This document shows, piece after piece, positions 16,398-31,245 of a stretch of 64,000 nt of DNA. Positions within the stretch are counted from its first letter, which is position 1. Each line of letters opens with the position of its first letter. The notes under the pieces are model-generated. The model was not told the origin of the DNA and searched no databases. It saw only the letters and a list, made by a program, of their open reading frames with translations. Origin of the DNA: a virus (Duplodnaviria; Caudoviricetes); IMG/VR virus record IMGVR_UViG_3300032038_000036, positions 36,727-100,726 of that record, one strand, 5' to 3'. The position numbers and the translations under genes are program-made.

Positions 16398-16471
16398 GGG
16401 GATATCATACTAACAGGTTAGGTGGCAACCCTTTCAAGGTTGAGATACGGGTTCGAGCCCCGTTATCCCTA
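16398..16471 (+). tRNA. tRNA-Glu(UUC)
   Basis: CAACC-CTTTCAA-GGTTG. Confidence 0.85.
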
Positions 16472-16700
16472 CAAAGTTCACATCCCAGACAGATGGGTAA
16501 AGTTAGCATTAGAGATATGGGTTATCCGGAAATTTTATCACATATCACTTGCTGGAGTTGTCATAATCGAGTGCGCATCAAGAAAGAACTCCCATAGGCT
16601 TAAGCTTAAATACATTGGGCGAGATGGAACAGAACTTTATTTATGCACTTACTAAAACGCGAAAAACGGGTTCTTGAGGTTATCCATAAACCTCAAATAT

Positions 16701-16773
16701 TGGGCTGTCGTCTAACTGGTAAGGATACCGCCCTGATAAGGCGGCGATCTCGGATCATTCCCGAGTGGCCCAA
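16701..16773 (+). tRNA. tRNA-Ile(GAU) with Gln/Glu-like body and atypical T loop
   Basis: CCGCC-CTGATAA-GGCGG; T loop ATCATTC. Confidence 0.7.
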
Positions 16774-16779
16774 CAACAT

Positions 16780-16853
16780 TGGGATATACAGTATAATGGT
16801 TAGTACAGCGGACTCTGACTCCGCAGGTTTCGGTTCGAATCCGGATATCCCAA
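16780..16853 (+). tRNA. tRNA-Gln(CUG)
   Basis: GCGGA-CTCTGAC-TCCGC. Confidence 0.85.
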
Positions 16854-16938
16854 CGTACCTTTTGGTTGTAGGTGACTTTTCAGCATAGGCACAGCGAGCT
16901 TCGCGCCGCCGTTTACTAATAATGGAACCTTCATTTAT

Positions 16939-17012
16939 TGGGCTATGCTGTGTAACGGTTAGCACGTCAGCCTTTGAAGCTGAAGGTCTGAGTTCGAATC
17001 TCGGTAGCCCAA
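16939..17012 (+). tRNA. tRNA-Gln(UUG)
   Basis: TCAGC-CTTTGAA-GCTGA. Confidence 0.85.
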
Positions 17013-17013
17013 C

Positions 17014-17138
17014 AATAAAGGTATAGGTTCGAATCCTATATGGCAGTATTGAAGTCTATATGACTGATGGTTAATAGTTCTAGAATGTTAATCTGAAAAT
17101 GTAAACTCTGTCATTGGTGTAGGAGGTAGCATATTATT
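17014..17138 (+). ncRNA. circularly permuted tRNA-like RNA with ~60-nt insert closing the acceptor stem
   Basis: T arm ATAGG-TTCGAAT-CCTAT, ATGGCAG...CTGTCAT acceptor, then D arm GTGT-AGGAGGTA-GCAT. Confidence 0.65.
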
Positions 17139-17143
17139 TATAT

Positions 17144-17217
17144 TGAGCTGTATTTCAGTTGGTTAGAATGCCATCCTGATAAGATGGAGGTCGTAGGTTC
17201 AAGTCCTATCAGCTCAA
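17144..17217 (+). tRNA. tRNA-Ile(GAU)
   Basis: CCATC-CTGATAA-GATGG. Confidence 0.9.
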
Positions 17218-17542
17218 CTTTGGGAATTAGCAAAATGATTCGTATGAAAGTCATTATCTGTAAATATTTGCGTAAGGCCGCGATTAGGCCGAAAGTTCTC
17301 GAGATCAATAATATTTATAATAATGATAAGTAATGACAGAAAGAGAAATTAGTAAGATTAGCTAACTTACGAAATTGAATTTGAAGAAGCGAACATACTG
17401 CGCTACCCGTGGGTGGGTAGAGGTCCTGTGAAAGTCAGTGGTTCCCGACCGTATAATGAAGTTTTGAAAATTTCATATTTTCAATAACACCGGTCCCATC
17501 CTATGCTACTCGAGGTAGGCATGGAACTAGGCCGGTGACCAT

Positions 17543-17615
17543 GGGGATGTCGTATAACGGTTTATTACGATGGTCTCATAAGCCGTAGAAGGTGGTTCGA
17601 TTCCACCCATCCCTA
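17543..17615 (+). tRNA. tRNA-CAU (elongator Met or Ile2)
   Basis: loop CTCATAA. Confidence 0.85.
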
Positions 17616-17719
17616 CACATGGAGGTTCACTTGCGCAGGACTAGTTAAACAGTACTTACAATTATATCTTGCAAAGAAAAACAATCGGATATCTGATAGT
17701 GATAAGATACCTCCACCCA

Positions 17720-17862
17720 AATTCCTTGTTGAATTGAAGAGTTACTTCTTAATCCGCCAGAAACTTTGGATTTTTAGCTTAATTGGTTAGAGCGCGGGCC
17801 TGCAAAGCCCGAGGTGATGGTTCAAGCCCATAAATATACTTTTCGAGAATGTTACAGGAATT
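17720..17862 (+). ncRNA. Y-RNA-like module RNA 5 enclosing D arm, GCA anticodon arm and T arm (module replaces acceptor stem)
   Basis: AATTCCT-T-GT-TGAA-TTGAAGAGT-TACTTC...CGGGC-CTGCAAA-GCCCG...ACTTTTCGA-GAATGTT-AC-AGGAATT. Confidence 0.75.
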
Positions 17863-17866
17863 ACTT

Positions 17867-17939
17867 GCGGCTGTCGTATAACGGTTTATTATACTCGCCT
17901 TCCAAGCCAGGGACGTGGGTTCGACTCCCATCAGCCGCT
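17867..17939 (+). tRNA. tRNA-Gly(UCC)
   Basis: loop CTTCCAA. Confidence 0.85.
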
Positions 17940-18061
17940 CGCATTAGTAATGGAGTTTGGTAACGCAGAGTTTTCTCAAGGTTCTCCACGTTAAATTTAA
18001 AAACTGCTTTTAATGTGGGCACCGTTTTATATTCGAGAATATAGTACGGTGCTTATATAAT

Positions 18062-18134
18062 GCATCTGTCGTATAACGGTTCAGTACGTTCGCCTTCCAA
18101 GCCTAAGACGTGGGTTCGACTCCCATCAGATGCT
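18062..18134 (+). tRNA. tRNA-Gly(UCC)
   Basis: loop CTTCCAA, weak anticodon stem. Confidence 0.8.
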
Positions 18135-18149
18135 CTATTCTTAATTGAT

Positions 18150-18223
18150 GGCCCTCGGGACAGATTGGTTTAAGTCGTCGGTCTCTCAAGCCGGAATAAC
18201 GGGTTCGAATCCCGTGGGGGCTA
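18150..18223 (+). tRNA. tRNA-Glu(CUC)
   Basis: loop CTCTCAA. Confidence 0.85.
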
Positions 18224-18231
18224 CAATAATT

Positions 18232-18363
18232 CGCGGAGTGGTGAAATTTAAAATTAGACTTTATTCGCTGTTGCTTCGAATGAATGCTGTAGATTAGAGT
18301 TACTTCGGTATACACGCTTTTCAGGAAAAAAAGATTATGTTGGTTCGAGTCCAACCTCCGCGA
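18232..18363 (+). tRNA. tRNA-like RNA (Leu-type D arm, ambiguous anticodon) with module inserted in D loop
   Basis: acceptor CGCGGAG/CTCCGCG; module 18258-18306. Confidence 0.65.
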
Positions 18364-18471
18364 CGACGCAGTTTCGAAAGACCCATACTCTGGTGTGATG
18401 AGATAATATCAAGGAAGCACATACTAGTGGCAAAAAGTAGAGGTTCAAAATGGTGGGAAGCCATTAACAAT

Positions 18472-18546
18472 GCGGGTGTAGTATAACGGTTATTACATGA
18501 CATTGCCAATGTCGAGACGTGAGTTCGACTCTCATCATCCGCTCCA
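18472..18546 (+). tRNA. tRNA-Gly(GCC)
   Basis: loop TTGCCAA, encoded CCA. Confidence 0.9.
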
Positions 18547-18602
18547 TTTTGGAATCATATTGAACAATTGGTGAACTTTAGTGTGGTTCCTGTTCACCCC
18601 AT

Positions 18603-18675
18603 GCGGTAGTAGCTCAATTGGTAGAATGTCACCTTGCCAAGGTGAAGGTTGCGGGTTCGAGTCCCGTCTACCGCT
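18603..18675 (+). tRNA. tRNA-Gly(GCC)
   Basis: TCACC-TTGCCAA-GGTGA. Confidence 0.9.
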
Positions 18676-18788
18676 CACAATAAAAATAGTCCAATGCCGA
18701 TAAAGTTCTTACAGCACGGTATAAAAACATGTATATTTATCTGTAAGTAATATATGCATAGATAGTTTAAGTGGTTTCTATCATTTAT

Positions 18789-18935
18789 GCGGATGTAGTA
18801 TAAAGGAAAGTACACCGTTAAAAAGATTTTTATGACCTTTTAACGCTGTTACATCGTAAGATTGTTGTAGTTGAGAGTTACTTCAAATTATTGCATTCCA
18901 AGCCGGGGATGTTGGTTCGAGTCCAACCGTCCGCT
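18789..18935 (+). tRNA. tRNA-Gly(UCC) with 75-nt module insert in anticodon stem
   Basis: removing 18818-18892 restores CCGGC-ATTCCAA-GCCGG. Confidence 0.75.
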
Positions 18936-19211
18936 CAAATTATTTAAGATCTTAAATCCAGTTGTTGTTCCTGTTCTGGGAGAATATATTCCGGTATATC
19001 TCATAAAAACAAAAGCAGGGCCGTGACAATACAGAGGATTCCCTGAGGCCTCTGAAAAAATCCGCTTAGGGCCATCTTCATGAGGTTAATGTTGAAATCC
19101 CGCCCTCGCAGCTTGAGCAACTATAAGCCTTGATTATAGTAAAAAACATATCGGGACAAGACAGGGAGAATGGTTGACCTGTCATTTTTATAAATAAATA
19201 GGAATTTTGTT

Positions 19212-19535
19212 ATGGAATACACTTACAGTGGATTAGAAAACAGAATTTCTGCGGAACACTTGAAAGCTGGTGAAGTTGTAAAAGTTACAGGAAAGGGGAA
19301 TTCGATGACCCCAATATTAAAGTCTAGACAACCTGTAATTTGTATTCCAGTTGATGAAAATACTGTGTTAGCGAAACGTGACATAGTTTTGTGCAAAGTC
19401 AATGGACATTATTACCTTCACCTTATTTGGAGTTTGAAACCAGGAGATAGATTCTTGATTGGGAATAATCATAATCATCCAAATGGGGTTATATCAAGAA
19501 ACAATATCTTTGGTAAAGTGGTAGAAATTCTATGA
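19212..19535 (+). CDS. S24/S26 family peptidase-like protein
   Basis: GNSMTP catalytic-Ser motif, DIVL, GNN. Confidence 0.7.
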   Translation: MEYTYSGLENRISAEHLKAGEVVKVTGKGNSMTPILKSRQPVICIPVDENTVLAKRDIVLCKVNGHYYLHLIWSLKPGDRFLIGNNHNHPNGVISRNNIFGKVVEIL

Positions 19536-19580
19536 GTTTCACAAACTCATTATTTTTCCTTAATTCCTTTTTATTAACAT

Positions 19581-19655
19581 GGTGTCGTTAACTTAACTGG
19601 TGAAAGGCGGTGACTGTGAATCACTGAGATGTCGGTTCGAATCCGATGCGACACA
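19581..19655 (+). tRNA. tRNA-His(GUG)
   Basis: GGTGA-CTGTGAA-TCACT, G-1 present. Confidence 0.85.
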
Positions 19656-19821
19656 CGCGATAAAACTATAATAAATTCTAAGTAATGCTGTCGAGGTTAG
19701 TCCGAAGGTAACGAAGAAGTGTACACCTGCAACTCAGGAGAGGAAAATTCGCAGAAACATCGGTGAGGGATTTATTTACAATTTGAGTTTTTGATAAGTT
19801 GTTTAAGAAATTGTTTTATAT

Positions 19822-19905
19822 GGTGGTATTCGTCTAGAGGCCGATGACGCCAGATTGTGGTCCTGGTAGCGAGAGCTCACGTTGGTTCGAATCCAACATA
19901 CCACC
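19822..19905 (+). tRNA. tRNA-His(GUG) with long variable arm
   Basis: loop TTGTGGT; G-1/C73; V arm AGC-GAGA-GCT. Confidence 0.8.
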
Positions 19906-20070
19906 CGAATATCTTGAAGGACATACCTGTATATGAACCAGGAGAAGTTACCGTAGGCAACCAATGTGTAGCATCATACAATCAAGGCAAAGCATTAGAG
20001 TTGTACGGGATAGTGAAATGTAAAGGTATCTATCGAGGCTTATGCTTGTGCCAGTCAAACAAGCATCATT

Positions 20071-20157
20071 GGAGGTGTGGCAGAGCGGTCGATTGCACCG
20101 GTCTTGAAAACCGGAGGCCGTGAGAGCGGCCCGTAGGTTCGAATCCTACCGCCTCCG
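20071..20157 (+). tRNA. tRNA-Ser(UGA)
   Basis: canonical class II. Confidence 0.92.
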
Positions 20158-20177
20158 CAATAATATATAGAGAGAAA

Positions 20178-20498
20178 ATGAAAATCGATGAAAAGAGATT
20201 TTTACAAGAAAGCGATAAAACCGGTCGTTTTATTGTAAAATCAAAAATAACAGGAAAGAAATATTTTGTAGAACCTATTGGTAATACACATTCTGCAGAT
20301 TGGGGAGATTTGGATCCTGCAACAAAAAAGATGACTGGATCTTATGGAGAACGATATGAAGGATGTGTACCTGAAAAAGATTCTCTTATAACTGAAGCAA
20401 ACGGATTTGAGAAAATTGAATTGCTTGATGCTGGTGTTTCTCCATTATCAGAAATTGATAGAAGAGATAGAGAATATCAGAAACAGATGGGTTTATAA
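20178..20498 (+). CDS. hypothetical protein
   Basis: 106 aa ORF with typical codon usage. Confidence 0.7.
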   Translation: MKIDEKRFLQESDKTGRFIVKSKITGKKYFVEPIGNTHSADWGDLDPATKKMTGSYGERYEGCVPEKDSLITEANGFEKIELLDAGVSPLSEIDRRDREYQKQMGL

Positions 20499-20534
20499 TT
20501 TTATTTTTAATTACAAATATAATTATATAATAAA

Positions 20535-21650
20535 ATGAAAGACTTATTTGAGTTTTTATCAGATAATATTTATGAAAAGGATATATTCCTTGAGACAGTA
20601 AATATGATTGTTGATGAAACAATTAATGAAAGTTTCCAAGCATCAATATTAACTGAATTAGCAAAGAGAATTAAAGATGCTGAAAAGGAACATGCTGACC
20701 AAGATAAAAAAGAAGAACAAAGATACAAAGAAGAAGGTCGCGGTTATAAGCCAACAAAGACAGCAAAAACTTTCGCATCTATTTTTGGTCCATTAACAGA
20801 AACTCCAAGATGGGGTGACAAGAAAACTGGTATTCGTGGTTTGAAATGGTCAGAAATTAAAGATAGTGATTTCAAACAATATAAAGGTGATGATAAAGAA
20901 TTTGTAAAGTTCTTAAAATCAGTTTATGCAAAGAAAGCAATTGCCGATATGATTGTTTGTGCTCCAGGTACTAAAGATATTGTATGTTTTATTAAAGGAT
21001 ATGCAAAAACTTTAGGAGATGTAAGAGTATATTACTTTGCAACAGAAGGTTGGAAAAAGGGTGTTCAAGAGAAAACTGAAAAGAAATACAAATATGATGT
21101 ACGTTCTTTGAAGGTTAATGAAACACTTGAATTGATTAAAGATTTTGACGTATATGTTCTTGAAGTTACAGAATCAATGATTAAAGATTATGATGAACTT
21201 CATAAAGATCGTACTGATGCTCAAAAAGGTTCAATTGAAATGGACGAAGCAAGTATGAAAACTTTGCTTAAACAACAAAAAGCTCGTTATGATGCAATGG
21301 TTAAAGAAATAAAAGCAAAGAAACTTCAAGATGATCCAAATATTTTATTCAATGACATAAAGAAAGCAAATGATGATGTTGTTGCTTTGTTCCAAAAGGT
21401 AATGTCAAAACCTGAAAATATGGATATGCGTTTTGATTTATCAGATTTAATGAGATATGTTTCTTATGCATATGAACAATTCTACAAATCAATGAAATCT
21501 CTTAGAACTGCTAAACGTAGTGAAGATAGATATGGTAAGGGATATGGGAAATATGATAAAGAACGTTCTGATGAAGAAATTCGTGATGCAAAAGAATATC
21601 TTGAAAAGGTAAACAAAATGGTTAAGGAGATTGAAGACCAATTGAAATAA
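20535..21650 (+). CDS. hypothetical protein, possibly head-packaged
   Basis: 371 aa; N-terminal IYE/INES resembling T4-type prohead protease sites. Confidence 0.7.
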   Translation: MKDLFEFLSDNIYEKDIFLETVNMIVDETINESFQASILTELAKRIKDAEKEHADQDKKEEQRYKEEGRGYKPTKTAKTFASIFGPLTETPRWGDKKTGIRGLKWSEIKDSDFKQYKGDDKEFVKFLKSVYAKKAIADMIVCAPGTKDIVCFIKGYAKTLGDVRVYYFATEGWKKGVQEKTEKKYKYDVRSLKVNETLELIKDFDVYVLEVTESMIKDYDELHKDRTDAQKGSIEMDEASMKTLLKQQKARYDAMVKEIKAKKLQDDPNILFNDIKKANDDVVALFQKVMSKPENMDMRFDLSDLMRYVSYAYEQFYKSMKSLRTAKRSEDRYGKGYGKYDKERSDEEIRDAKEYLEKVNKMVKEIEDQLK

Positions 21651-21890
21651 CCTTAAAGATAATACTATTTATAATTACGGGCAGTCATAGGTTGGTGCAC
21701 AGGCCTATGAATCGAAGCAGCCTGTTAGCTACGGCAGCAGGGGAAATCGTTCGTTCCGTTCCTTAAGTGCGTGGTCTGAGGAATCTATAGAAGCGTTAGT
21801 TAGAGTTGTTGCACCTTTGTATCTTCGGATATGTGCCACATCCTGTAGAGGGCGAGAAACCTCGTTGAAACTCGAAAGAGCCACGTGTAT

Positions 21891-21959
21891 CGGGAGTTAG
21901 CTCAACGATAGAGCCATGGATTTTACTGTGAGACGGTTGTTTAACTCAATCACTCCCGA
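21891..21959 (+). ncRNA. degenerate tRNA-like RNA with 6-nt anticodon loop
   Basis: CGGGAGT/ACTCCCG acceptor; CATGG-ATTTTA-CTGTG; T loop TTTAACT. Confidence 0.55.
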
Positions 21960-21964
21960 CAAAA

Positions 21965-22025
21965 TTGGTTACGCAGTAAATGGTACATGTATGCTAGCTA
22001 TTTGGTTCGATTCCAACGTAACCAA
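21965..22025 (+). ncRNA. anticodon-less tRNA-like RNA
   Basis: TTGGTTACG/CGTAACCAA stem plus T arm. Confidence 0.55.
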
Positions 22026-22216
22026 CTAATAATTTGGATGCCTGCATTATCTTTTTTGACGGGTGAAAGCAGATGGAAGATAAAAACCAGCTCGGCCATT
22101 AAACAACAGAATGTGTCCAAATAAATAATAGGTTGAATAATGACGTAACCTTAATCGTGATGGTCATTCGTGTGGTTCGGTGCCTAAGACTGCGTTAATG
22201 GAACAAGGACACTTAT

Positions 22217-22291
22217 GGGTCGGTGGCGCAAATGGTAAGACGCGCTTGCCTTAGAAGCAAGATCTTGGGGGTTCGACTCCCCCTCGGCCTA
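22217..22291 (+). tRNA. tRNA-Leu(UAG) with short variable loop
   Basis: CTTGC-CTTAGAA-GCAAG. Confidence 0.8.
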
Positions 22292-22420
22292 CGCCTAATA
22301 GAATACTTGGGAGACTAAGAAAGGAAACGTAATAAAGATACATAAGGCCTTTGTTGATTTATTACAGACTCATCGCAAGATTTTCCTGGAGTCGGCAGTG
22401 GAATACCAAGAGGCAGATCT

Positions 22421-22496
22421 AGGAGCATAGCTCAGCTGGTTCAGTAGCGTCAGTCTTACAAACTGAAGGTCATGGGTTCGATCCCCATTGCTCCTA
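22421..22496 (+). tRNA. tRNA-Val(UAC)
   Basis: TCAGT-CTTACAA-ACTGA. Confidence 0.9.
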
Positions 22497-22743
22497 CGAA
22501 TACGATACCGCGTTTATGGGTAAGTTTATCCGGTTAAAATAAAACCACCTTATAACTCATTATTCAATGACTTGGTGATAGGAACTTATCGTTACCTATG
22601 AAAAAAGGAAATCATCAAGCTGAAAGAGATAGTATAACGACCTTGTCATGGCAACGTTATACATTTTTAGTAAGACCAGTTATGTGGGTATTTGTATGTC
22701 GCGAAGTACAAATATTCATTGGTTAGAATAATTGAGTGTTTAT

Positions 22744-22822
22744 GCGGCTGTGGCGCAATTGGTCGACGCAGCGGTCTAAGAAGCCGTCCTTCGGGGTATG
22801 GGTTCGAGTCCCATCAGCCGCA
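22744..22822 (+). tRNA. tRNA-Leu(AAG)
   Basis: loop CTAAGAA. Confidence 0.85.
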
Positions 22823-22970
22823 CAAAGAGATACTAAGAGGTTTACTCAATGATGTATTCAAAGTACAAGGATATTAGAGTATGGGATAGCGGGCGCTAAC
22901 AGTGTGATACAGAACTTCGCACACTTAGTAACAACATAGGCGAGTGTACAGTAACTTATGGCTCTTAAAT

Positions 22971-23058
22971 ACCTTCTTGGTGGAAATGGTAGACACGCCA
23001 GTCTAAGAAACTGGTCCGAAGTAACAGTAGGGTGCGGGTTCAAATCCCGTGGGAGGTA
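22971..23058 (+). tRNA. tRNA-Leu(AAG)
   Basis: CCAGT-CTAAGAA-ACTGG. Confidence 0.88.
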
Positions 23059-23062
23059 CAAA

Positions 23063-23128
23063 TAGAACTTATCCGGTGAATGCGCGCGGGATGAGAATAC
23101 TAGGAGGGTTCGACTCCCTCAGTTCTAT
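23063..23128 (+). ncRNA. tRNA-like RNA: acceptor + T arm, no canonical anticodon arm
   Basis: TAGAACT/AGTTCTA; GAGGG-TTCGACT-CCCTC. Confidence 0.55.
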
Positions 23129-23160
23129 TTATATAATAAATTAATATAATAGAGAGAAAA

Positions 23161-23409
23161 ATGATTACTCATGATTTAAAGACAATTGTAAAAGGTTCTG
23201 CCGTTCTTGATTGTGTAAAGGCAGGTGGTATTGCTGTTTATCATATAACAGTAGAAGATGGTACAATTTATTCACTTGATATTGATTTGTCTGATAAGCA
23301 TGATGTTGGAGAAACTGCTACATTTATGTCTCATTATGATAAAGCTTTAATATTGATGAGATGGATAAGACGTGCAATTGATAATGAAGAATTGTATAAG
23401 ATAAACTAA
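23161..23409 (+). CDS. hypothetical protein
   Basis: 82 aa; same AGAGAGAAAATG start context as 20178. Confidence 0.7.
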   Translation: MITHDLKTIVKGSAVLDCVKAGGIAVYHITVEDGTIYSLDIDLSDKHDVGETATFMSHYDKALILMRWIRRAIDNEELYKIN

Positions 23410-23537
23410 TTTGTTGTATCAATATATTTTTATACGAGGATAGGCTTTAATGCCTGCGGCTTGAACCGCTGCTGTCCGATTTATAACGGCTAACGAGATT
23501 TAATCTCCGTGAGAACAAATGGATCCTCGTTTTTAAT

Positions 23538-23616
23538 GGCCCGATGGCGGAATTGGTCTACGCAGCTGTCTCAAAAGCAGTGCTTCGGCGTCTGGGTTCG
23601 AATCCCAGTTGGGCTA
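23538..23616 (+). tRNA. tRNA-Leu(CAA)
   Basis: loop CTCAAAA. Confidence 0.9.
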
Positions 23617-23753
23617 CTCGCAATTGACATTACTTATGTAATTAGAATGATTTGGAGAAAAAAATTTCTAAATCATTCATTTTTTGTGAAAATATTTTGT
23701 CCATAAGACTATTTTATATTTATTATTAATTAAATTAAAAGAAAATATCGCAA

Positions 23754-23864
23754 ATGCAATTAGTCAATACATATAAACAAATATTAGACCAAACATTAGA
23801 TAATGCTTGGAATAAGGATTATGCGTTAAATTTTGACCACTTGCAGAATGATATGGAAGGATAA
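23754..23864 (+). CDS. 36 aa leader peptide MQLVNTYKQILDQTLDNAWNKDYALNFDHLQNDMEG
   Basis: short ORF containing antiterminator strand GACCACTTGCAG. Confidence 0.6.
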   Translation: MQLVNTYKQILDQTLDNAWNKDYALNFDHLQNDMEG

Positions 23865-23895
23865 TAAGAATATAACTATAAAATGATATAGCTGC

Positions 23896-23932
23896 AAGTG
23901 GTTAGGTGAAAAACTTAACCACTTATTTTTTT
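23896..23932 (+). terminator. intrinsic terminator of attenuator 2
   Basis: AAGTGGTTAGGT-GAAAA-ACTTAACCACTT-ATTTTTTT. Confidence 0.8.
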
Positions 23933-23963
23933 GTAAAAATTTCTAAAATATTTTCATAAATAA

Positions 23964-24001
23964 TTTGAAATTAAAACAGAAGATACTATATTATAATTGT
24001 A
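23964..24001 (+). promoter_or_regulatory. putative promoter of tRNA block 2
   Basis: TTTGAAAT...TACTATATTATAATTG. Confidence 0.5.
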
Positions 24002-24312
24002 ACAAAATTAAATATTATTTAATAACAAATATTATTTGATTTTTAGTTCTTTGAAATATTGAACTCAAGAGAAATAAAATCCACTGGGTTATTGAAGAAT
24101 AGGTTCAATTCCGATTCTATAACGTAGTCAGCCGGTACTCCTAAATAGGCAAAAGGAGCAATAATTCAGTAAAGGTACAAAGGTACTATATATGAGGGAT
24201 TGAAAATTTCCATGGGAATTTGAAAATCAGGGTAAAGTGACCCACCACATGTAGAGCAAGGATTCGCACTTAAATGAACATTATAGAAGAATAGTACTGG
24301 ATTTTTATAAAT

Positions 24313-24383
24313 TGGATCATGGTGTAATGGTAACACGCAAGATTTTGGTCCTTGCGTTCTGGGTTCGAGCCCCGGTGATCCAA
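24313..24383 (+). tRNA. tRNA-Gln(UUG)
   Basis: loop TTTTGGT. Confidence 0.88.
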
Positions 24384-24425
24384 CAAATTGATGTAGAAAT
24401 TTTTTTGAAATTTTTCTTACAAAAG

Positions 24426-24527
24426 TTTGAAATATTGAAATTAAGTTCTATATTAATATTGTAATTTTCAAATAATATTTAGAAAAATGTTATTTGATTA
24501 TTTACACTTGAGATCTTTGACATATTG
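24426..24527 (+). promoter_or_regulatory. promoter plus boxA-like leader
   Basis: TTTGAAAT...CTATATTAATATTG then AGATCTTTGACATATTG. Confidence 0.55.
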
Positions 24528-24806
24528 GTACAACAAAATAAATTTAATAAGGATCCTCTGAGATGGGTGCCCTAAGGTAGAAGCTTGAGGATTGAAATGG
24601 ATAATGTTTTATGCAACATCAAAAGCAGCTGTTTATTCAGCGGCGCCCGTGGGTATTAATCCCGATGAAAATATCGCCTTATTAAAACAAAAAACTGATT
24701 TGGAAGAGGAGTGGTGGAAAACCCCTTTCAATGGGATGCCAAGCAACCCAGCGAAATAGTTCAGTAAATATATGTAGTAATACAAACAGAATTTCCTTAT
24801 CATTCT

Positions 24807-24879
24807 GGTCTTATAATTTTAATGGTTAGAATACCTGATTAGTAATCAGGATGTTTGAGTTCGAATCTCAATGGGACCT
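24807..24879 (+). tRNA. tRNA-Thr(AGU)
   Basis: CCTGA-TTAGTAA-TCAGG. Confidence 0.85.
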
Positions 24880-25021
24880 CAATATGAATGCCTTCGATGT
24901 AAATTGGAAGATTATTTAATAAGTTGGAATAACATTCATAATTTAGGCCGAGAGAATACCACAGGAGCAGATTGAAATAAGTATTAGCTGATGTGGAACA
25001 ATATTCTTGATGACGCCATTT

Positions 25022-25095
25022 GCTCTGTTAGCTTTAATTGGTAGAGCGCCGCACTTGTAATGCGGATGTTATCGGTTCGAGTCCGGTACGGAGCT
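25022..25095 (+). tRNA. tRNA-Thr(UGU)
   Basis: CCGCA-CTTGTAA-TGCGG. Confidence 0.9.
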
Positions 25096-25152
25096 CCCGA
25101 AAGTACGATAGGTTTCAGGAATTTTCCCATCGTACTAAAAAATTCCAAATTT

Positions 25153-25226
25153 GGGCTTGCATGTACCAAGGCTGGCGAGGTTCCCTTGCAAGGAACTTGT
25201 GGAGAGTTCGATTCTCTTCGGGTCCA
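25153..25226 (+). tRNA. tRNA-Ala(UGC)
   Basis: GTTCC-CTTGCAA-GGAAC; G3.U70. Confidence 0.8.
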
Positions 25227-25378
25227 CAAATACAAAACTTCTATAAAGGAAATTTACTTAAGCTGCAGATTTTGTAAAAAGTATGTTATAGATGCGTCCG
25301 TTAGAAGTAATTTGATAGTTCATTTCCCTATGAAGGTTAAGGAGTCGGTAGAAGTAGAATCCGGCGCGGACATTTTTT

Positions 25379-25450
25379 GCTCCTGTAGCTCAGTGGTAGA
25401 GCAGTAGACTGTTAATCTATTGGTCGTGGGTTCAATCCCCTCCGGGAGCG
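25379..25450 (+). tRNA. tRNA-Asn(GUU)
   Basis: loop CTGTTAA. Confidence 0.9.
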
Positions 25451-25558
25451 CGAACATGGCGAAACATATCCAGTAACTATAGGTGAACAGAAAGGTGAAC
25501 AGCAAATAACCGAGTATGACTGGTGAATTTCACAAATCATGAATGATGCTGCATTCAT

Positions 25559-25684
25559 TTGTTTTTAGTTTAATTTGGATAAAACACCCGGATGAAACCG
25601 GGAGATGTAAAGAGCTGCTTAATTAGGCCTGATTGCAATGAGGAAACCGGTTAAGTTAGTTGGGTTCGAATCCCACAAAATAGC
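25559..25684 (+). ncRNA. tRNA-like RNA with ~50-nt insert at the T stem and 6-nt anticodon loop
   Basis: D arm GTTT/AAAC; CCCGG-ATGAAA-CCGGG; TGGG-TTCGAAT-CCCA. Confidence 0.55.
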
Positions 25685-25698
25685 AAATTAATAAAATT

Positions 25699-25772
25699 GG
25701 GGATATAGCTATAATGGTCAGAGCGGCGGCCTGTTAAGCCGATGGTTGTGGGTTCGAATCCCTCTGTCCCCG
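25699..25772 (+). tRNA. tRNA-Asn(GUU)
   Basis: loop CTGTTAA. Confidence 0.88.
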
Positions 25773-25858
25773 CTAGTGGTTTGAACTTGAATTAACAAGC
25801 GAAAGGATAAAAGCTTTCACACGAATATAAATCCGAAAATGCTAAATTATCCAATGAT

Positions 25859-25947
25859 GGCGCGATGATGGAATTGGTAGACATAGCAGACTTAAAATCT
25901 GCTGGGCCGTAAGGTCCGTGCGGGTTCGAGTCCCGCTCGCGCTACCA
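25859..25947 (+). tRNA. tRNA-Leu(UAA)
   Basis: GCAGA-CTTAAAA-TCTGC, CCA. Confidence 0.92.
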
Positions 25948-26073
25948 ATAATATGAGTGTGGAAATAACTTGTAACTCAAGTAGAGAGTTTCCAGTAAAT
26001 GGGTGGCGAGAAGAGTAAAGAGCTTACAATTTAGCCATATTATTATTTTGGATCACTTAGGTGACAGATATTT

Positions 26074-26148
26074 GGTCCATTGGTATAACGGTTAGAATAT
26101 GTGACTGTCGATCACAAGATGAGGGTTCGACTCCCTCATGGACCGCCA
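26074..26148 (+). tRNA. tRNA-Asp(GUC)
   Basis: TGTGA-CTGTCGA-TCACA, CCA. Confidence 0.9.
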
Positions 26149-26169
26149 AATAACTAAGTGATATATTTT

Positions 26170-26243
26170 GGTGGCGTGGTTTGAATGGTTACAATGCCGG
26201 ACTGTCAATCCGTGTGGTGGGGGTTCGAATCCCCTCGTCACCG
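26170..26243 (+). tRNA. tRNA-Asp(GUC)
   Basis: loop CTGTCAA. Confidence 0.85.
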
Positions 26244-26409
26244 CAAATAGAAAATAATAACTTATAAATATAAATTAAAAACATATGAAAACAATGAAAC
26301 GAAAACGTTAGTTGTGTATGTTTCCTGAGAGAAATTGGTATTATGTTTTAACCAAAAGAAGCATGCACATAAAATCAAAATCAAAAACAAATGAATTTAT
26401 TATGTGTAT

Positions 26410-26486
26410 GCCCTCTTAGCTGAGTTGGTTAAAGCTGCGGCCTTTTAAGCCGAGGATCCAGGGTTCGAGTCCCTGAGGGGGTACCA
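26410..26486 (+). tRNA. tRNA-Lys(UUU)
   Basis: loop CTTTTAA, CCA. Confidence 0.9.
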
Positions 26487-26489
26487 TTT

Positions 26490-26564
26490 GCTCTCATGGC
26501 GTTAATTGGTTAGCGTACCAGACTTTTAATCTGCGAGGTCAGGGTTCGAATCCCTGTGGGAGCA
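26490..26564 (+). tRNA. tRNA-Lys(UUU)
   Basis: loop CTTTTAA. Confidence 0.88.
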
Positions 26565-26578
26565 CAATTATAAATTAT

Positions 26579-26652
26579 GCCTCTGTAGCTGAGCTGGTTA
26601 AAGCTGCGGCCTCTTAAGCCGAGGATCGTGGGTTCGAATCCCACCGGAGGTA
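26579..26652 (+). tRNA. tRNA-Lys(CUU)
   Basis: loop CTCTTAA. Confidence 0.9.
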
Positions 26653-26678
26653 CACAACGGTTTCATATTGTTTAATAT

Positions 26679-26765
26679 GGCTCCGTGGCGAAATTGGTAG
26701 TACGCATCAGACTTAAAATCTGAGGTCCAGAAATGGGCGTGTGGGTTCGACTCCCACCGGGGCTA
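26679..26765 (+). tRNA. tRNA-Leu(UAA)
   Basis: TCAGA-CTTAAAA-TCTGA. Confidence 0.92.
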
Positions 26766-26932
26766 CAAATTAAATTTGGATGTGACTGCAGCAATATATA
26801 TAAAATTCATATTTAAGTGGAAGCTGTCACGGCTGCTTACCTGATATAAAGTAAGTAATAAATGTGTAAATGTTGACTTGCCTTAAGAAAGCAAATGTCA
26901 AATCCACTCGGTGAATTAATATGAATTTCCTT

Positions 26933-27005
26933 GGGGAGGTCGTTTAGTGGTCCAGGACAGTAGGCTTACATCCTACCAACCAGAGTTCGATTCTCTGCCG
27001 CCCCA
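26933..27005 (+). tRNA. tRNA-Val(UAC)
   Basis: GTAGG-CTTACAT-CCTAC. Confidence 0.82.
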
Positions 27006-27224
27006 CTCTTGCATGCCGTGCAAAAATTCATGGAGAAGTTAAATGGCTAAAGGTTGTTCTTTGAAGTATTAATGCGTACGACAATTATGGAGAAGATATT
27101 CATGAATCTTATTAGTGATTAGATAAGTTGATAATGGCGTAATTAACCATTTGATGATATTCTTTTTGGTAATAAGTTTAACACAGCTCCAATACAGTTC
27201 TCGATAATCTGGGAAATCGAAGTT

Positions 27225-27297
27225 GGTCCGTTGGTTGAACGGTAACAATGCCGGCTTGTCACGCCGTGTGGTACGGGTTCGATTCCCGTACGGACCG
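27225..27297 (+). tRNA. tRNA-Asp(GUC)
   Basis: loop TTGTCAC. Confidence 0.85.
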
Positions 27298-27393
27298 CGA
27301 ACATGGCTCATTTAGGGTATTCTGAATAAATGGCTGCAACTGTTTTGAAAGTTACCTATTAAATGAACAAATCGTTTCAATTGCAGTTGAAAC

Positions 27394-27479
27394 TTATGTT
27401 TAGTGTATGGGTTGCATGCTGGCGGCAAACAGTACGGCTGTTACCGCCGGAGGATAAGGTTCGAATCCTTGAGCATAGC
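27394..27479 (+). ncRNA. tRNA-like RNA with elongated anticodon arm
   Basis: CTGGCGG-CA-AACAG-TACGG-CTGTT-A-CCGCCGG plus T arm. Confidence 0.55.
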
Positions 27480-27752
27480 TATTTGTTGTATTGCAGGTAA
27501 CAATATAACAAATTATATGGGAAGAAATGGAGATAGTTTGGTTAAGTCGGTTTGTTGAAAATAGATTTAACACGGGCTGTTGAGACGATATAATTCTCAA
27601 CAGTAACAAGGAACAGATCCGAGCCTTTTAAATTCGGACAGCGATAAGTTGTGGCTTATCAGTGGTTGAATCTAAACTTATACCACGCATGAAACACTGC
27701 TAAATACGTTTAGCCGGTTCGTGGAAATTCCGGTTTTAATTTCCACCTTTTT

Positions 27753-27837
27753 GGGGTGGCTGCTCTGATGGTGGAAGGGCGGCGGACTGTAAATCCGTTA
27801 CTATGAAACACAGGGGGTTCGAATCCCTCCCACCCCA
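27753..27837 (+). tRNA. tRNA-Tyr(GUA)
   Basis: GCGGA-CTGTAAA-TCCGT. Confidence 0.88.
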
Positions 27838-27908
27838 CTGGCATCAGAACTGAGGTTCGAATCCTCAGAGAAGTAGTACTACTTAGTTTAGAAATGGTTA
27901 AAACAGTG
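27838..27908 (+). ncRNA. circularly permuted tRNA-like RNA
   Basis: T arm TGAGG/CCTCA, AAGTAG/CTACTT hairpin, D arm GTTT-AGAAATGGTTA-AAAC. Confidence 0.55.
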
Positions 27909-28004
27909 TAAGTCCGAGTTTTATTAATAAATTTAAAAGTTAAGAGTTATGAAGGAAGCAGTATTTTATTGCGGTATAGATGACTCAGAAGCATTCTATA
28001 CCAA

Positions 28005-28098
28005 GCCTGAGTAACGGCACCGGTCTGTAAAACCGATCTGCATCAACAAATTGTCGTAGTGGGCTCGCAGTAAGTAGGTTCGAATCCTACCTCAGGCA
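28005..28098 (+). tRNA. D-armless tRNA-Tyr(GUA)-like RNA with long variable arm
   Basis: GCCTGAG/CTCAGGC; CGGT-CTGTAAA-ACCG. Confidence 0.6.
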
Positions 28099-28111
28099 CA
28101 ATTCTTAACAA

Positions 28112-28248
28112 TGCCGGTTTATCACAGTATATTGGTAACTGTAGCCGCCCCGTACAGGCGGGTTCAACCAATCGAAAGTATATAGCTCGAGACAATATAT
28201 ATGAATAGAAGTTGAATATGTGAATAGGTTCGATTCCCACGATGGCAC
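28112..28248 (+). tRNA. aberrant tRNA-Tyr(GUA)-like RNA with ~55-nt variable insert
   Basis: CCGCC-CCGTACA-GGCGG; TTCAAC...GTTGAA arm; bulged T stem. Confidence 0.5.
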
Positions 28249-28364
28249 AATGGTTTATAATAATTAATCGAATTAATCTTGGAGGTAAAATCTCGCTCCT
28301 TACGATGAAGCGTTTTTATTTCGGTAAAATTCCGATATGGGAGTTAAATAGATTAAAGAGATTT

Positions 28365-28437
28365 GCGCTCTTAGCTCAGTTGGCAGAGCAACGGGCTTTT
28401 AATCCGTGGGTCCTGGGTTCGAGTCCCAGAGGGCGTA
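28365..28437 (+). tRNA. tRNA-Lys(UUU)
   Basis: loop CTTTTAA. Confidence 0.9.
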
Positions 28438-28443
28438 CAATTT

Positions 28444-28515
28444 GCCTCTATGGCAGAAGGGTTCATGCACCGGACTCTTAATCCGGCTATTAGGGTTCGA
28501 GTCCCTATGGAGGTA
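28444..28515 (+). tRNA. tRNA-Lys(CUU)
   Basis: CCGGA-CTCTTAA-TCCGG. Confidence 0.88.
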
Positions 28516-28521
28516 CAATAT

Positions 28522-28596
28522 CGCGGAAGCAGTGTGGTGGTCGCATACAAGGCTCATAACCTTAGTGGTGGAGTTCAATTCTCACTTCCGCAACCA
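28522..28596 (+). tRNA. initiator-like tRNA-Met(CAU)
   Basis: C1:A72 mismatch, loop CTCATAA, CCA. Confidence 0.75.
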
Positions 28597-28785
28597 ATTA
28601 TATTCTATCAGGTCGGAGTGCAGAGAAGTACTAATTAGTAAATTAGTAGGTATGACGAACATTAGGAAAATCCGGCACGTAGGTGGTACAGAATTATGGG
28701 AAGTTGCAAATTCGCTATAATTTCCGAGGCCGTAGGATGCGTTTAGGCGGTCATACGTTGGAAGGCGCAGGTGGGTAGAATATAT

Positions 28786-28858
28786 GGGGAGATAGTGTAA
28801 CGGTCAGCACGGGAGTCTTATACACTCGATAGTCTGGGTTCAAATCCCGGTCTCCCTA
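28786..28858 (+). tRNA. tRNA-Ile(UAU)
   Basis: GAGT-CTTATAC-ACTC. Confidence 0.8.
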
Positions 28859-29097
28859 CTCGTGCCAAGGTAGAGCGATGCAAGCCAGTATCTTGTGCTA
28901 GTCTTTCGCCATGTAGATGACGGGAAGTAATGTAAAATCATTGCAACATGGTACAAGCCCTCCCTATTCGGAACACGTAAGTGGTAAAGGTAAGGACTTT
29001 ATAACCGAAAGGTGAATTTGATAAGGATGCCGAATAGCCGAAAATGTATGAAATTGAAGTGAGTAGGTGAGTTACCAGTCTCGAAATACTGGTTAAT

Positions 29098-29170
29098 GCG
29101 TCTCTGGTCTAATGGTTAAGGCACTGGACTCCAAACCCAGTAGATGAGGGTTCGACTCCTTCGGGGCGCG
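29098..29170 (+). tRNA. tRNA-Trp(CCA)
   Basis: loop CTCCAAA, G73. Confidence 0.85.
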
Positions 29171-29302
29171 CTTATTATTTTGATAGTTCTGAAAAATTTT
29201 AATCAGAATGGGCGACATTGACTTGCTTAGCCCAGTGTTGAAATGCAGACCATTTAGGTAATCCTGCAAAGTATAATCTAAAAAAATCGAGGAGTCAAAT
29301 AT

Positions 29303-29442
29303 GGGTAGGTAACATAAAAAACGATTTAAAACTTCGGTCGTTGTTCTCCGTAAGGTAGTGTAGATTGTGAGTTACTTCAAAGGATTAATGTATTTGTCTG
29401 TTAAACAAAAGAGTGTTGGTTCGAGTCCAACCCTACCCGCCA
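29303..29442 (+). tRNA. tRNA-Asn(GUU) with module in D loop
   Basis: GGGTAGG/CCTACCC-G-CCA; TTTGT-CTGTTAA-ACAAA; module 29331-29378. Confidence 0.8.
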
Positions 29443-29537
29443 CTTATAAGGGAACCGAGTTATGGGGTACTCGGGGATAGGAAAGTTTGGAAACGTATTT
29501 GTCCTGTAAATCAGTCTTTCAAATAAACAACCCTTAT

Positions 29538-29608
29538 GGAGCATTAGGCTAACGGTAAACTGCTCCCGTGCTCTGGGAGTGTTCGAGGTTCAATTCCTTG
29601 GTGTTCCG
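29538..29608 (+). tRNA. tRNA-Ser(GCU)-like with short variable loop
   Basis: CTCCC-GTGCTCT-GGGAG. Confidence 0.6.
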
Positions 29609-29614
29609 CAAATT

Positions 29615-29744
29615 GGTGACGTAGCTAAACGGTAGATAAACGACTTTATTCGCTGTTACTCAGAAATGATGTTGTAGAACAGAGTTACTTCAAAGCATTA
29701 ATCAGTCAAATTAAGGAAAGTTGGTTCGACTCCAACCGTCACCG
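29615..29744 (+). tRNA. tRNA-Asp(GUC)-like with module in D loop
   Basis: TTAAT-CAGTCAA-ATTAA (A33); module 29643-29691. Confidence 0.7.
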
Positions 29745-29781
29745 CAATAATAAATTTTTGAAAATTTTATATTTTCAATAT

Positions 29782-29929
29782 TGGGTAGAAGTATAAGGGT
29801 AAAACAAATTTCAAAATGACTTTATTCGCTGTTACTCAGAAATGATGTTGTAGAACAGAGTTACTTCAAATTTAAATGTACATTTCGTCGTAATCGAAAG
29901 AGATGGTGGTTCGAGTCCACCCTACCCAA
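29782..29929 (+). tRNA. tRNA-like RNA (GUA or CGU anticodon) with module in D loop
   Basis: TTTCG-TCGTAAT-CGAAA; module 29819-29867. Confidence 0.65.
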
Positions 29930-29998
29930 CAATTCTCGTCGAGCAGCTGGTTTTCAGGGGCTTGTCACCAGCTGGGAACAAAAAAGACCGCCCACCAT

Positions 29999-30085
29999 GT
30001 GTCTATGGCCGAGTGGTTGAAGGCAGCAGACTGTTAATCTGCCGTGGAGAAATCCCCATCGTAGGTTCGATCCCTACTGGGCACG
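29999..30085 (+). tRNA. tRNA-Asn(GUU) with class II variable arm
   Basis: GCAGA-CTGTTAA-TCTGC; long V arm. Confidence 0.82.
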
Positions 30086-30092
30086 CCCTAAG

Positions 30093-30201
30093 TACTCTAT
30101 GGTGAAATTGGAAACTGACTTGAAGGCCAAAAGTTAGTAATACACGGAGGAACTGTAAACCTCTGCTTTAATGCATCTCGGTTCGAATCCGAGTAGAGTA
30201 C
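30093..30201 (+). tRNA. tRNA-Tyr(GUA)-like with extra hairpin in D loop and enlarged anticodon loop
   Basis: ACTGACTT..AAGTTAGT insert; GGAGG-AACTGTAAA-CCTCT. Confidence 0.6.
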
Positions 30202-30223
30202 TATGTTATATTCTTGCAAGAAT

Positions 30224-30295
30224 CGGGATTTGGTGTAATGGTAAGCACGGGGTTGTATTTGCGCAACCAGGTGAAGTTCGAATCTTCGGTCCCAA
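30224..30295 (+). ncRNA. tRNA-like RNA with 8-nt anticodon loop
   Basis: GGTTG-TATTTGCG-CAACC; D and T arms present. Confidence 0.55.
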
Positions 30296-30562
30296 CAAAT
30301 AACTATCGGTGTCCGAGTGAAACGGATATGTTTCTATATTGATGTGTCGGCGGACTGTGTTAAGACTTAGAATTAGGGCGCTACTTATCGACGGATAAGC
30401 AATCTTGAAAGGGGTACTTAACAGCATCAAGAAATAAACAAGGTTAAAAGTCAAGCAAGCCCGGGATAAAGTGAGGAACTAAGTTACTTGTTTTGGAAAC
30501 GATCACGGCAGGGATATAGCACCTGCAAATAATGGGTTCGACTCCCATGGCCGCTACAAGAT

Positions 30563-30700
30563 TGCCATTTAGCTCAGTCGGGTAGAGCACGTAACAATAC
30601 TTTTGTCGCTGGTTACGTAATATCATTAATTACTGTTGAAGATGAGAGTTACTTCAGCCTTTTAAGCTCGGGGTCGTGGGTTCGAGCCCCACAGTGGCAA
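30563..30700 (+). tRNA. tRNA-Lys(UUU) with 64-nt module insert in anticodon stem
   Basis: removing 30592-30655 restores CGAGC-CTTTTAA-GCTCG. Confidence 0.78.
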
Positions 30701-30827
30701 CTAATAAAAATATATCAGCATCTAAAACAGGGCCGAAGGAGAAACAATAGGCGCGCATTGTTCAATGGTTTGGGTCTGTCCGATGAGAAAAATCTTTGAG
30801 GCTAAGCCATGATGGATATATTTTTTC

Positions 30828-30865
30828 TTTGAAATTTTATTTATATAAAACTATATTATTATTGT
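30828..30865 (+). promoter_or_regulatory. putative promoter of last tRNA block
   Basis: TTTGAAAT...ACTATATTATTATTG. Confidence 0.45.
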
Positions 30866-30882
30866 TAATAAACAAACAGTTT

Positions 30883-30955
30883 GGGATGTAGGTCAAACGG
30901 TTAAGATGTCTGCCTGTCACGCAGCACGGAGCGGGTTCAACTCCCGTACGTCCCG
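30883..30955 (+). tRNA. tRNA-Asp(GUC)
   Basis: loop CTGTCAC. Confidence 0.85.
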
Positions 30956-31152
30956 CATAATATTGTTAAAAAGATGACATGCTCCTAAGGTAGGAATAAA
31001 TCTTTTTATGCAAGAGTCAATAACGATGGTTCTGATAGAATAAAAATTAAATTCAGAGAAATTAGATATTCAGCGCATGCGGGCTATCGTGGGAAGTACA
31101 ACCACAATTAGGGCGAGGCATAGTTGTTATTGCACAATATTATTTCTTCGTT

Positions 31153-31226
31153 GGGCCCGTAGCTCAGTTGGTTAGAGCAGCAGACTCATAATCTGAAGGT
31201 CGTGGGTTCAATCCCCTCCGGGCCCA
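31153..31226 (+). tRNA. tRNA-CAU (Ile2-like body)
   Basis: GGGCCCG/CGGGCCC; loop CTCATAA. Confidence 0.88.
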
Positions 31227-31245
31227 CAAATTATTATTAATATAT

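Follow-up and report, generated by a model that had tools for sequence, protein, structure and literature searches.

The window analysed here is a stretch of 64,000 nucleotides (nt) of viral DNA (bases 36727-100726 of the 100.7-kb IMG/VR virus record IMGVR_UViG_3300032038_000036, which is estimated to be 35% complete), in which at least 61 tRNA genes, all on the + strand, lie in two blocks within positions 13934-33166. At the junction, heading block 2, is an element that comprises a 36-codon open reading frame (ORF), an intrinsic terminator and an alternative helix that uses the 5′ arm of that terminator. From its sequence and those of its relatives we consider that this element is probably a ribosome-mediated (i.e. 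leader-peptide) transcription attenuator that senses the decoding of the codons of its own tRNA block, and we assign this reading a probability of about 0.65. The order of the parts is a promoter-like region (P1), the leader ORF (leader ORF 2), the switchable terminator, a second promoter motif (P2), a conserved RNA of 130 nt, and tRNA block 2. A twin element (element 1, at 13624) stands before block 1. The coordinates of the features are collected in Table 1.

The leader ORF carries one strand of a helix that competes with the terminator

The initial annotation had placed here a 36-codon ORF containing a segment complementary to the 5′ arm of a terminator, and each of these features is present. 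The 12-nt segments GACCACTTGCAG (23835-23846) and CTGCAAGTGGTT (23892-23903) form a helix of 11 Watson-Crick pairs and one G-U pair, which grows to 15 pairs (23832-23846 with 23892-23906) when A-U and G-U pairs are counted. We term the strand within the ORF region 2, its partner region 3, and the 3′ arm of the terminator region 4. Nucleotides 23896-23906 belong to both the antiterminator (2:3) and the terminator (3:4) helices, so the overlap that had been described is real. The two helices are mutually exclusive, and the strand that competes for the 5′ arm of the terminator is a segment that could be masked by a ribosome. The terminator stem begins 31 nt after the stop codon of the ORF. Within 12001-35000 the only strong terminators on the + strand are this one, at 23896, and those at 13772, 23645 and 34653, the last being downstream of the tRNA island.

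Dinucleotide-preserving shuffles of the upstream 115 nt (n = 5000) gave at least 12 consecutive pairs in 0.16% of cases and 15 consecutive pairs in none, and chance pairing is rejected on this basis. When the sequence is folded without the 3′ arm, the 5′ arm of the terminator pairs with region 2 in 14 of 14 variants of the main family (defined below). This preference suggests that, where no ribosome intervenes, the antiterminator is the first of the two helices to form.

Both helices and the reading frame are conserved

Relatives were gathered with baits lying outside the ORF and the hairpins, i.e. a neighbouring ORF of 82 amino acids (aa) and a small-RNA motif downstream. The resulting alignment contains 16 element sequences from related huge-phage contigs, with 15 distinct leader peptides, and 14 of the sequences constitute the main family. 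In these 14 the 12-pair core of the antiterminator is paired at ~100%. The antiterminator is 84.7% paired, compared with 29-42% in slid controls, and four of its pairs exhibit compensatory changes. Two of these lie outside the terminator stem (one changing from G-C to A-U via G-U, the other from G-C to U-A or A-U), so that the terminator cannot account for those changes. In the terminator 94.3% of cells are paired, and four pairs show compensatory change. Regions 2, 3 and 4 have been altered in concert in one lineage. Three more divergent members were found via the peptide profile. In these the ORF tail pairs with its own, different terminator arm, which is followed by a P2-like motif and then by Gln-UUG, Thr, Tyr, Ile-UAU and Asn tRNA genes. 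Covariation of terminator and antiterminator across related phages had been suggested as a check in the initial annotation; both helices covary, and the ORF is kept.

Indels in leader ORF 2 among the relatives are either in-frame, or are frameshifts that are compensated, and the ORF stays open despite a base composition that is rich in stop codons. In two variants the frame is lost upstream of region 2 and regained just downstream of it. The position of the stop codon is nearly fixed, lying 15-20 nt (mostly 17) past the conserved core of region 2. A search with a profile of the peptide found 30 more cluster representatives among 1.84 billion; 28 of these are 31-37 aa in length, and the other two were called longer (49 and 60 aa). 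More than 40 leader-2 variants share a conserved N-terminus of 24 residues, and nucleotide conservation toward the 5′ end of the ORF is very high, with third codon positions no exception. The nucleotides of region 2 are kept even though they are translated in three different frames across the family. This pattern suggests that the ORF acts as codons over its first two thirds, and in its last third as RNA that a ribosome must cross.

There is an additional conserved hairpin within the ORF. One of its pairs has changed from C-G to U-A in four sequences, i.e. a compensatory change, and slid controls are paired at 18-47%. This hairpin may be a pause or timing element for both polymerase and ribosome.

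In all contexts examined the leader-2 family is located at the junction between blocks 1 and 2. Comparison of 23620-24060 with 50,697 phage records using blastn gave no match, and a Pfam search with the 82-aa ORF and with both leader peptides returned no family. The possibility that leader ORF 2 encodes a type I toxin was considered and rejected, as the peptide is hydrophilic.

The codons of each leader match the tRNA block behind it

Applying strict wobble rules to the whole of leader 2, the tRNAs of block 2 read 30 of its 36 codons while those of block 1 read 11. The bias is reversed in the leader of element 1 (leader 1), for which the block-1 tRNAs read 26 of the 37 codons and the block-2 tRNAs 14. 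Random reassignment of the 29 anticodon species to the two blocks reached this contrast with P = 8.5e-5, and did so in 0 of 200,000 trials when only the codons upstream of region 2 were used. Compared with 36-codon windows of the long genes of the phage, the leaders are found at opposite extremes of the distribution (0.4% and 1.4%). A/T-richness as the cause of the match was rejected, since the deviation of leader 1 is in the other direction and both leaders are extreme among these windows.

The codons that do not match are concentrated at and past region 2. Upstream of this are the sensing codons (2-23 in leader 2). In four-codon boxes U34 is known to decode codons ending in A, G or U; such decoding was allowed in counting the sensing codons, with the background treated alike. 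Block-2 tRNAs then read 21 of the 22 sensing codons of leader 2 (61% background, P = 2.9e-4), and just three of the 22 are readable by those of block 1. The corresponding count for leader 1 and block 1 is 25 of 26, against a background of 47.5% (P = 1.2e-7). The match of the sensing codons is complete in all 15 leader-2 variants (19-24 of 19-24), counts that are not independent of each other, the close relatives being a single clade.

The choice of codons follows the composition of the block. In the sensing part of the 15 variants Leu is always encoded by TTA, and Ile by ATA in 14 variants and by ATT in one; TTA and ATA are the codons of the Leu-UAA and Ile-UAU tRNAs of block 2. Codons for Glu, Gly, His, Pro, Cys, Phe and Arg never occur in the sensing part, and are common in the tails. 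Among the 30 peptide clusters (homologous peptides that are not independent) residues 2-22 belong to the block-2 amino-acid set in 99.0% of cases, and the tails in 71.8%. There are no tandem runs of a regulatory codon in leader 2; about a dozen kinds of codon each occur one to five times. The relatives retain the same division of tRNA species between the blocks. In one of them (G003) block 1 has acquired Leu-UAA, and three TTA codons are present in leader 1, against none in that of the window.

A third, strongly diverged leader family occupies the same junction in two contigs (L067:8141-8325, - strand, and L075:4941-5125, + strand). It has a different terminator, and its alternative pairing is just 6-8 bp. 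All 19 of its sensing codons match (19/19 compared with 61% background, P = 8.6e-5), and after these 19 block-2 codons the tail contains His, Pro, Gly, Ser, Cys and Arg codons.

An unrelated leader is found in G005, a complete 356-kb genome of a distant relative, where an ORF of 35 codons lies ahead of a small tRNA block (Glu-CUC, Glu-UUC, Arg-CCU, Arg-UCU, Gln-UUG, Gln-CUG, Cys-GCA and a CUA suppressor). The leader contains 14 consecutive codons drawn only from the nine codons read by this block (log10 P ~ -12), and samples each of the seven sense tRNAs. The sensing codons pair with the ORF tail in a strong 1:2 helix, and 9 nt of the tail are complementary to the 5′ arm of a long terminator hairpin (2:3 versus 3:4; z = -6.9 for the whole fold). 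An ORF of ~130 aa lies between the terminator and the tRNA genes. No second exact copy of this leader was found in viral contigs. As predicted from its sequence this is a classical attenuator design, and the principle is thus not bound to one sequence family. We note that the leader ends in TAG; reading of this stop codon by the suppressor tRNA of its own block would tie the switch to the change of genetic code in the phage.

The initial annotation had suggested that the RNA island is a translation-stress-inducible module. This is supported to the extent that the codons of the leaders match the block behind them, and that the unrelated G005 leader does likewise.

Comparison with element 1

The two elements of the window have a mirrored geometry, as had been claimed. 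The leaders have 36 and 37 codons, the pairing segment is 15 nt from the stop codon in element 2 and 12 nt in element 1, and the distance from the stop codon to the terminator stem is 31 nt and ~36 nt respectively. The accompanying description of the elements as unrelated in sequence holds for the ORFs and the hairpins. It does not extend to the flanks, where they share a motif upstream and a segment after the terminator. The motif of ~21 nt lies 15-26 nt before the start codon (13577-13597 and 23718-23738), and its best matches in the genome are only at these two small ORFs. The segment following the terminators, ~110 nt long, is 82% identical between 13824-13933 and 23925-24040.

In element 1 of this genome the 5′ leader (13613-13622) can pair with region 2 (13714-13722), and the resulting 1:2 helix would cover the nucleotides just ahead of the start codon. 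Three relatives do not share this pairing.

Promoter motifs flank the terminator

A sequence motif recurs in the phage, with ~15 good copies in the 100.7-kb record, each located 11-23 nt upstream of the start of an ORF (for example at 1226, 47825, 52106 and 54071, + strand). It consists of a TTTGAA box, ~17 nt, and an 18-nt core ending TATATTTGTAA, and from its position we read it as the probable standard promoter of the phage. P1 contains a weaker copy upstream of the leader. A strong copy, P2, lies between the terminator and the tRNA genes, and is conserved in relatives too. The exact pattern of the P2 core was matched in viral contigs nowhere beyond its own genome. There are also weaker copies of the motif within block 2, at 24447 and 30850.

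Motifs upstream of genes contain the element TAnnTTTG, which we take to be the -7 box of Bacteroidota promoters. In combination with the tRNA island and the size of the related contigs (39-554 kb for those that share the 82-aa ORF), this suggests that the DNA comes from a huge gut or rumen phage that infects Bacteroidota. Lak-type megaphages are a described kind of huge Bacteroidota phage (PMC6784885); the likeness here is one of kind, and is not a placement in that clade.

A proposed mechanism for the switch

The mechanism that we infer involves translation of the leader ORF, termination in vivo, control of the switch by the ribosome, and a physiological trigger, and would operate as follows. 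Transcription would start at P1 (~23700-23730) and pass through the 36-codon leader. As the polymerase makes regions 3 and 4, a 2:3 helix would form except when region 2 is occupied by a ribosome, or has just been passed by one. A fast ribosome would reach the stop codon and hold region 2 off region 3, whereupon the 3:4 terminator would form and the P1 transcript would end at ~23932. If the ribosome were slow or stalled in codons 2-23, or if there were none, region 2 would be free and the antiterminator would form, so that the polymerase could continue past P2 and transcribe the conserved small RNA and then the tRNAs of block 2. A shortage of any one of the sampled tRNAs would be enough, i.e. 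the switch would behave as an OR-gate. Ample block-2 tRNAs would shut off the extra transcription, providing negative feedback. The twin element would do likewise for block 1. Cleavage of host tRNA, suggested as the trigger in the initial annotation, is plausible.

A wider proposal can be built on this, to which we give slightly less than even odds. Huge gut and rumen Bacteroidota phages might run their tRNA islands as homeostats, in which each block has a leader written in its own codons, and a shortage of any one tRNA would halt the ribosome and thereby disrupt the terminator. It would be the first example of leader-peptide attenuation of tRNA genes, and a direct counter-measure to defence systems that target tRNA. 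The shortage could arise from a mismatch with the codon usage of the host or from host anticodon nucleases.

Evaluation of the attenuator and of alternative explanations

A number of observations weigh against attenuation by the leader. The evidence is computational throughout, and the close examples all come from one clade. Most of the distant relatives examined have no recognisable module: those sharing the 82-aa ORF at 59-70% identity have none at the same place, and the tRNA islands of G005-G008 contain no clear one with the exception of the G005 case above. In element 1 the pairing in this genome is 7 bp, which is not above that in shuffles. The conservation of the 5′ part of the ORF as nucleotides is also compatible with a function at the RNA level. 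The 1:2 helix of the single-sequence fold is weakly conserved among relatives, and the leader-2 family has no convincing conserved anti-antiterminator, so that an untranslated RNA would default to read-through. Lastly, P2 is downstream of the terminator, whereby block 2 can be transcribed without read-through. Given P2, the element could simply be a separate transcription unit.

The position of P2 means that the idea of a block gated by the attenuator alone is not tenable. Read-through from P1 would then only add to the transcription of the block, a restriction on how large the effect could be and not on the mechanism itself. Attenuated operons do have internal promoters. What stands of the initial interpretation is the anatomy, i.e. 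an ORF, a terminator and a competing antiterminator that are conserved and covary, and what falls is complete unrelatedness in sequence.

The same anatomy would fit an attenuator of a more general kind, responding to overall translation capacity, to transcription-translation coupling, or to arrest by a nascent peptide or drug, with the codon match a by-product of favoured codons. The lack of single-codon runs in the leader is consistent with this, and the N-terminal peptide sequence is conserved as it is in arrest peptides. Moreover the G+C content of the record is 30%, and the codons of block 2 are the common A/T-rich ones, with a background of 61%. Yet favoured codons would not bias leader 1 in the opposite direction, towards the rarer codons of block 1, nor put the two leaders in opposite tails of the windows from the phage's own genes. 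The G005 leader uses exactly the Arg, Glu, Gln and Cys codons of its own block, and amino-acid replacements among the leader-2 variants remain within the set of the block. We consider this explanation unlikely. Rather less likely again is a functional protein of 36 residues expressed from its own unit between P1 and the terminator, the block being driven by P2 only and the 2:3 helix serving mRNA stability or translation. In its favour, the unit does have its own promoter-like motif and terminator, with a second promoter directly after it, and the N-terminal 24 residues are kept in more than 40 variants. However, preservation of the nucleotides of the C-terminal third in three frames, together with their complement, indicates a constraint on the RNA rather than on the protein, and the helix uses exactly the 5′ arm of the terminator and covaries with it. 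The match between leader and block, the reverse bias of leader 1 and the example in G005 would be left unexplained, the peptide matches no protein family, and the family is found at the block-1/block-2 junction in all contexts examined.

The very high nucleotide conservation of the 5′ part, third codon positions included, and the conserved internal hairpin might alternatively reflect a non-coding small RNA that ends at the terminator; the ORF would then be fortuitous, and the alternative helix would belong to the structure of that RNA. This is the least probable of the explanations, and we consider it very improbable; an incidental ORF would hardly be open in every variant with in-frame or compensated indels and a nearly fixed stop codon, and there is no match to an Rfam family. 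The attenuator that senses the codons of its own block is thus the reading we prefer.

Other features of the tRNA island

The last gene of block 2 (33093-33166) is a tRNA with a CUA anticodon, i.e. an amber suppressor, and it is kept in relatives. TAG is the stop codon of several leader-2 variants, and suppression by the CUA tRNA could lengthen such leaders toward region 3. Three tRNA-like genes have odd anticodon loops (30223-30296, 27394-27479 and 32999-33068), for which ARAGORN gives a four-base anticodon, tttg, and two-base anticodons, gc and ag. The tttg and ag forms are found at the same site in relatives.

The 82-aa ORF (23161-23409) lies inside the island, just upstream of the last tRNA gene of block 1, and is 59-100% identical across 20 huge-phage contigs. 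An A/T-rich hairpin of 14 pairs followed by a T-run (23645-23678) is located 27 nt past tRNA-Leu(CAA), overlapping the upstream box of P1. It probably closes tRNA block 1, and a counterpart is present in G001. The structured RNA of ~130 nt between P2 and block 2 is found in at least 14 distinct related contigs, with a closing stem, inner hairpins and a few compensatory changes. It is absent from some relatives (e.g. L097), and it has no Rfam match.

Table 1. Positions of the features discussed in the text. Coordinates are those of the window unless another contig is named.
Feature	Position	Strand	Remarks
Element 1 (twin element)	13624-13801	+	37-codon leader 13624-13737; terminator 13772-13801; before block 1
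tRNA block 1	13934-23617	+	Behind element 1
P1, promoter-like region and 5′ leader	23661-23738	+	Weaker motif copy, core 23708-23725, 3 mismatches
Leader ORF 2	23754-23864	+	36 codons + TAA; open in all 15 distinct relatives
Sensing codons 2-23 of leader 2	23757-23822	+	A ribosome stalled here would leave region 2 free
Conserved hairpin within leader ORF 2	23789-23810	+	93.8% of cells paired, 16 sequences
Region 2 (antiterminator 5′ strand)	23832-23846, core 23835-23846	+	Inside codons 27-31
Region 3 (shared strand)	23892-23906	+	Partner is region 2 (antiterminator) or region 4 (terminator)
Intrinsic terminator	23896-23932	+	12-pair hairpin 23896-23924, then T-run ATTTTTTT
P2, strong promoter-motif copy	23937-24035	+	Core 23985-24002, 1 mismatch
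A/T palindrome after P2	24014-24035	+	Conserved
Structured non-tRNA RNA, ~130 nt	24176-24305	+	Between P2 and tRNA-Gln (24313)
tRNA block 2	24313-33166	+	Gln, Thr, Asn, Leu-UAA, Asp, Lys, Val, Tyr, Ile-UAU, Trp, Ser, Met, Ala, CUA suppressor
G005 leader	L047:4187-4402 (= G005:C1 ~256186-256401)	- (L047)	35 codons, TAG stop

Implications for phage tRNA genes

How phages control large sets of tRNA genes, and why they carry them, is an open question. Current explanations are compensation for codon usage and escape from host defences that cleave tRNA. If the proposed mechanism is correct, a leader that samples the codons of the tRNAs downstream would provide a self-adjusting supply of tRNA, and both explanations would become one testable circuit. 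Classical attenuation would then extend from amino-acid operons to tRNA genes and to the phages of Bacteroidota, bacteria in which transcription-translation coupling is poorly studied. The leaders could also be a bioinformatic marker of which tRNAs share one regulatory unit.

Comparison with known systems

The closest parallels are the leader-peptide attenuators of the enterobacterial amino-acid operons, i.e. trpL, hisL, leuL and pheL, and the multivalent leaders of thr and ilvGMEDA. In common with these the element has a promoter, a short ORF, and a terminator whose 5′ arm can pair alternatively with a segment of the ORF; the position of the ribosome would choose between the helices, and the codons of the leader name what the operon supplies. 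It is closer to the thr and ilvGMEDA leaders than to trpL or hisL, as several kinds of codon are mixed. There are a number of differences. Here tRNA genes would be regulated rather than biosynthetic enzymes, so that the molecule sensed is the product itself. There are no single-codon runs, and about a dozen tRNA species are each represented by a single codon or a few. Region 2 is part of the coding sequence and precedes the stop codon, there is no clear conserved 1:2 helix, a promoter follows the terminator, and the element is carried by a phage of a probable Bacteroidota host. A scan of 13000-34000 against Rfam 15 at E values up to 1 returned tRNAs and noise only, with nothing cis-regulatory at 23620-24310; the Trp, His, Leu, Thr and Phe leader models gave no match at that threshold.

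The pheST operon of E. coli is controlled through the pheM leader, in which tandem Phe codons sense the cognate charged tRNA. This is likewise a component of the translation apparatus under leader-peptide attenuation, but the gene product is a synthetase rather than tRNA, and a single amino acid is sensed. T-box riboswitches also sense the status of tRNA, using a terminator-antiterminator switch upstream of translation-related genes. They differ in that tRNA is bound directly by the RNA, without an ORF, and this possibility was rejected since no T-box or specifier structure was found in the Rfam scan.

The trn operon of Anabaena PCC 7120 contains a long array of supernumerary tRNA genes that is silent by default and is induced when translation is impaired (PMC8421152; PMC10272220). 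It resembles the island in being an array of extra tRNAs that could be induced by translation stress. Its control is exerted by a ribbon-helix-helix (RHH) repressor, TrcR, acting at the promoter (PMC10272220), rather than by a leader peptide and terminator switch, and it is cellular and not phage-borne. In E. coli the upstream ORF (uORF) of topAI stalls ribosomes and thereby senses translation inhibitors (bioRxiv 10.1101/682021). In uORFs of this type, as proposed here, a small ORF signals the stalling of ribosomes to downstream expression. They respond to drugs, precede resistance or toxin genes, often act via Rho or translation, and have no codon match to tRNA genes downstream. Searches of the literature for leader-peptide control of tRNA arrays, or of phage tRNA genes, yielded no description of it. 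The matching of the codons of the leader to the tRNA block downstream is the new point of this analysis; the proposed control otherwise resembles attenuation by the multivalent leaders.

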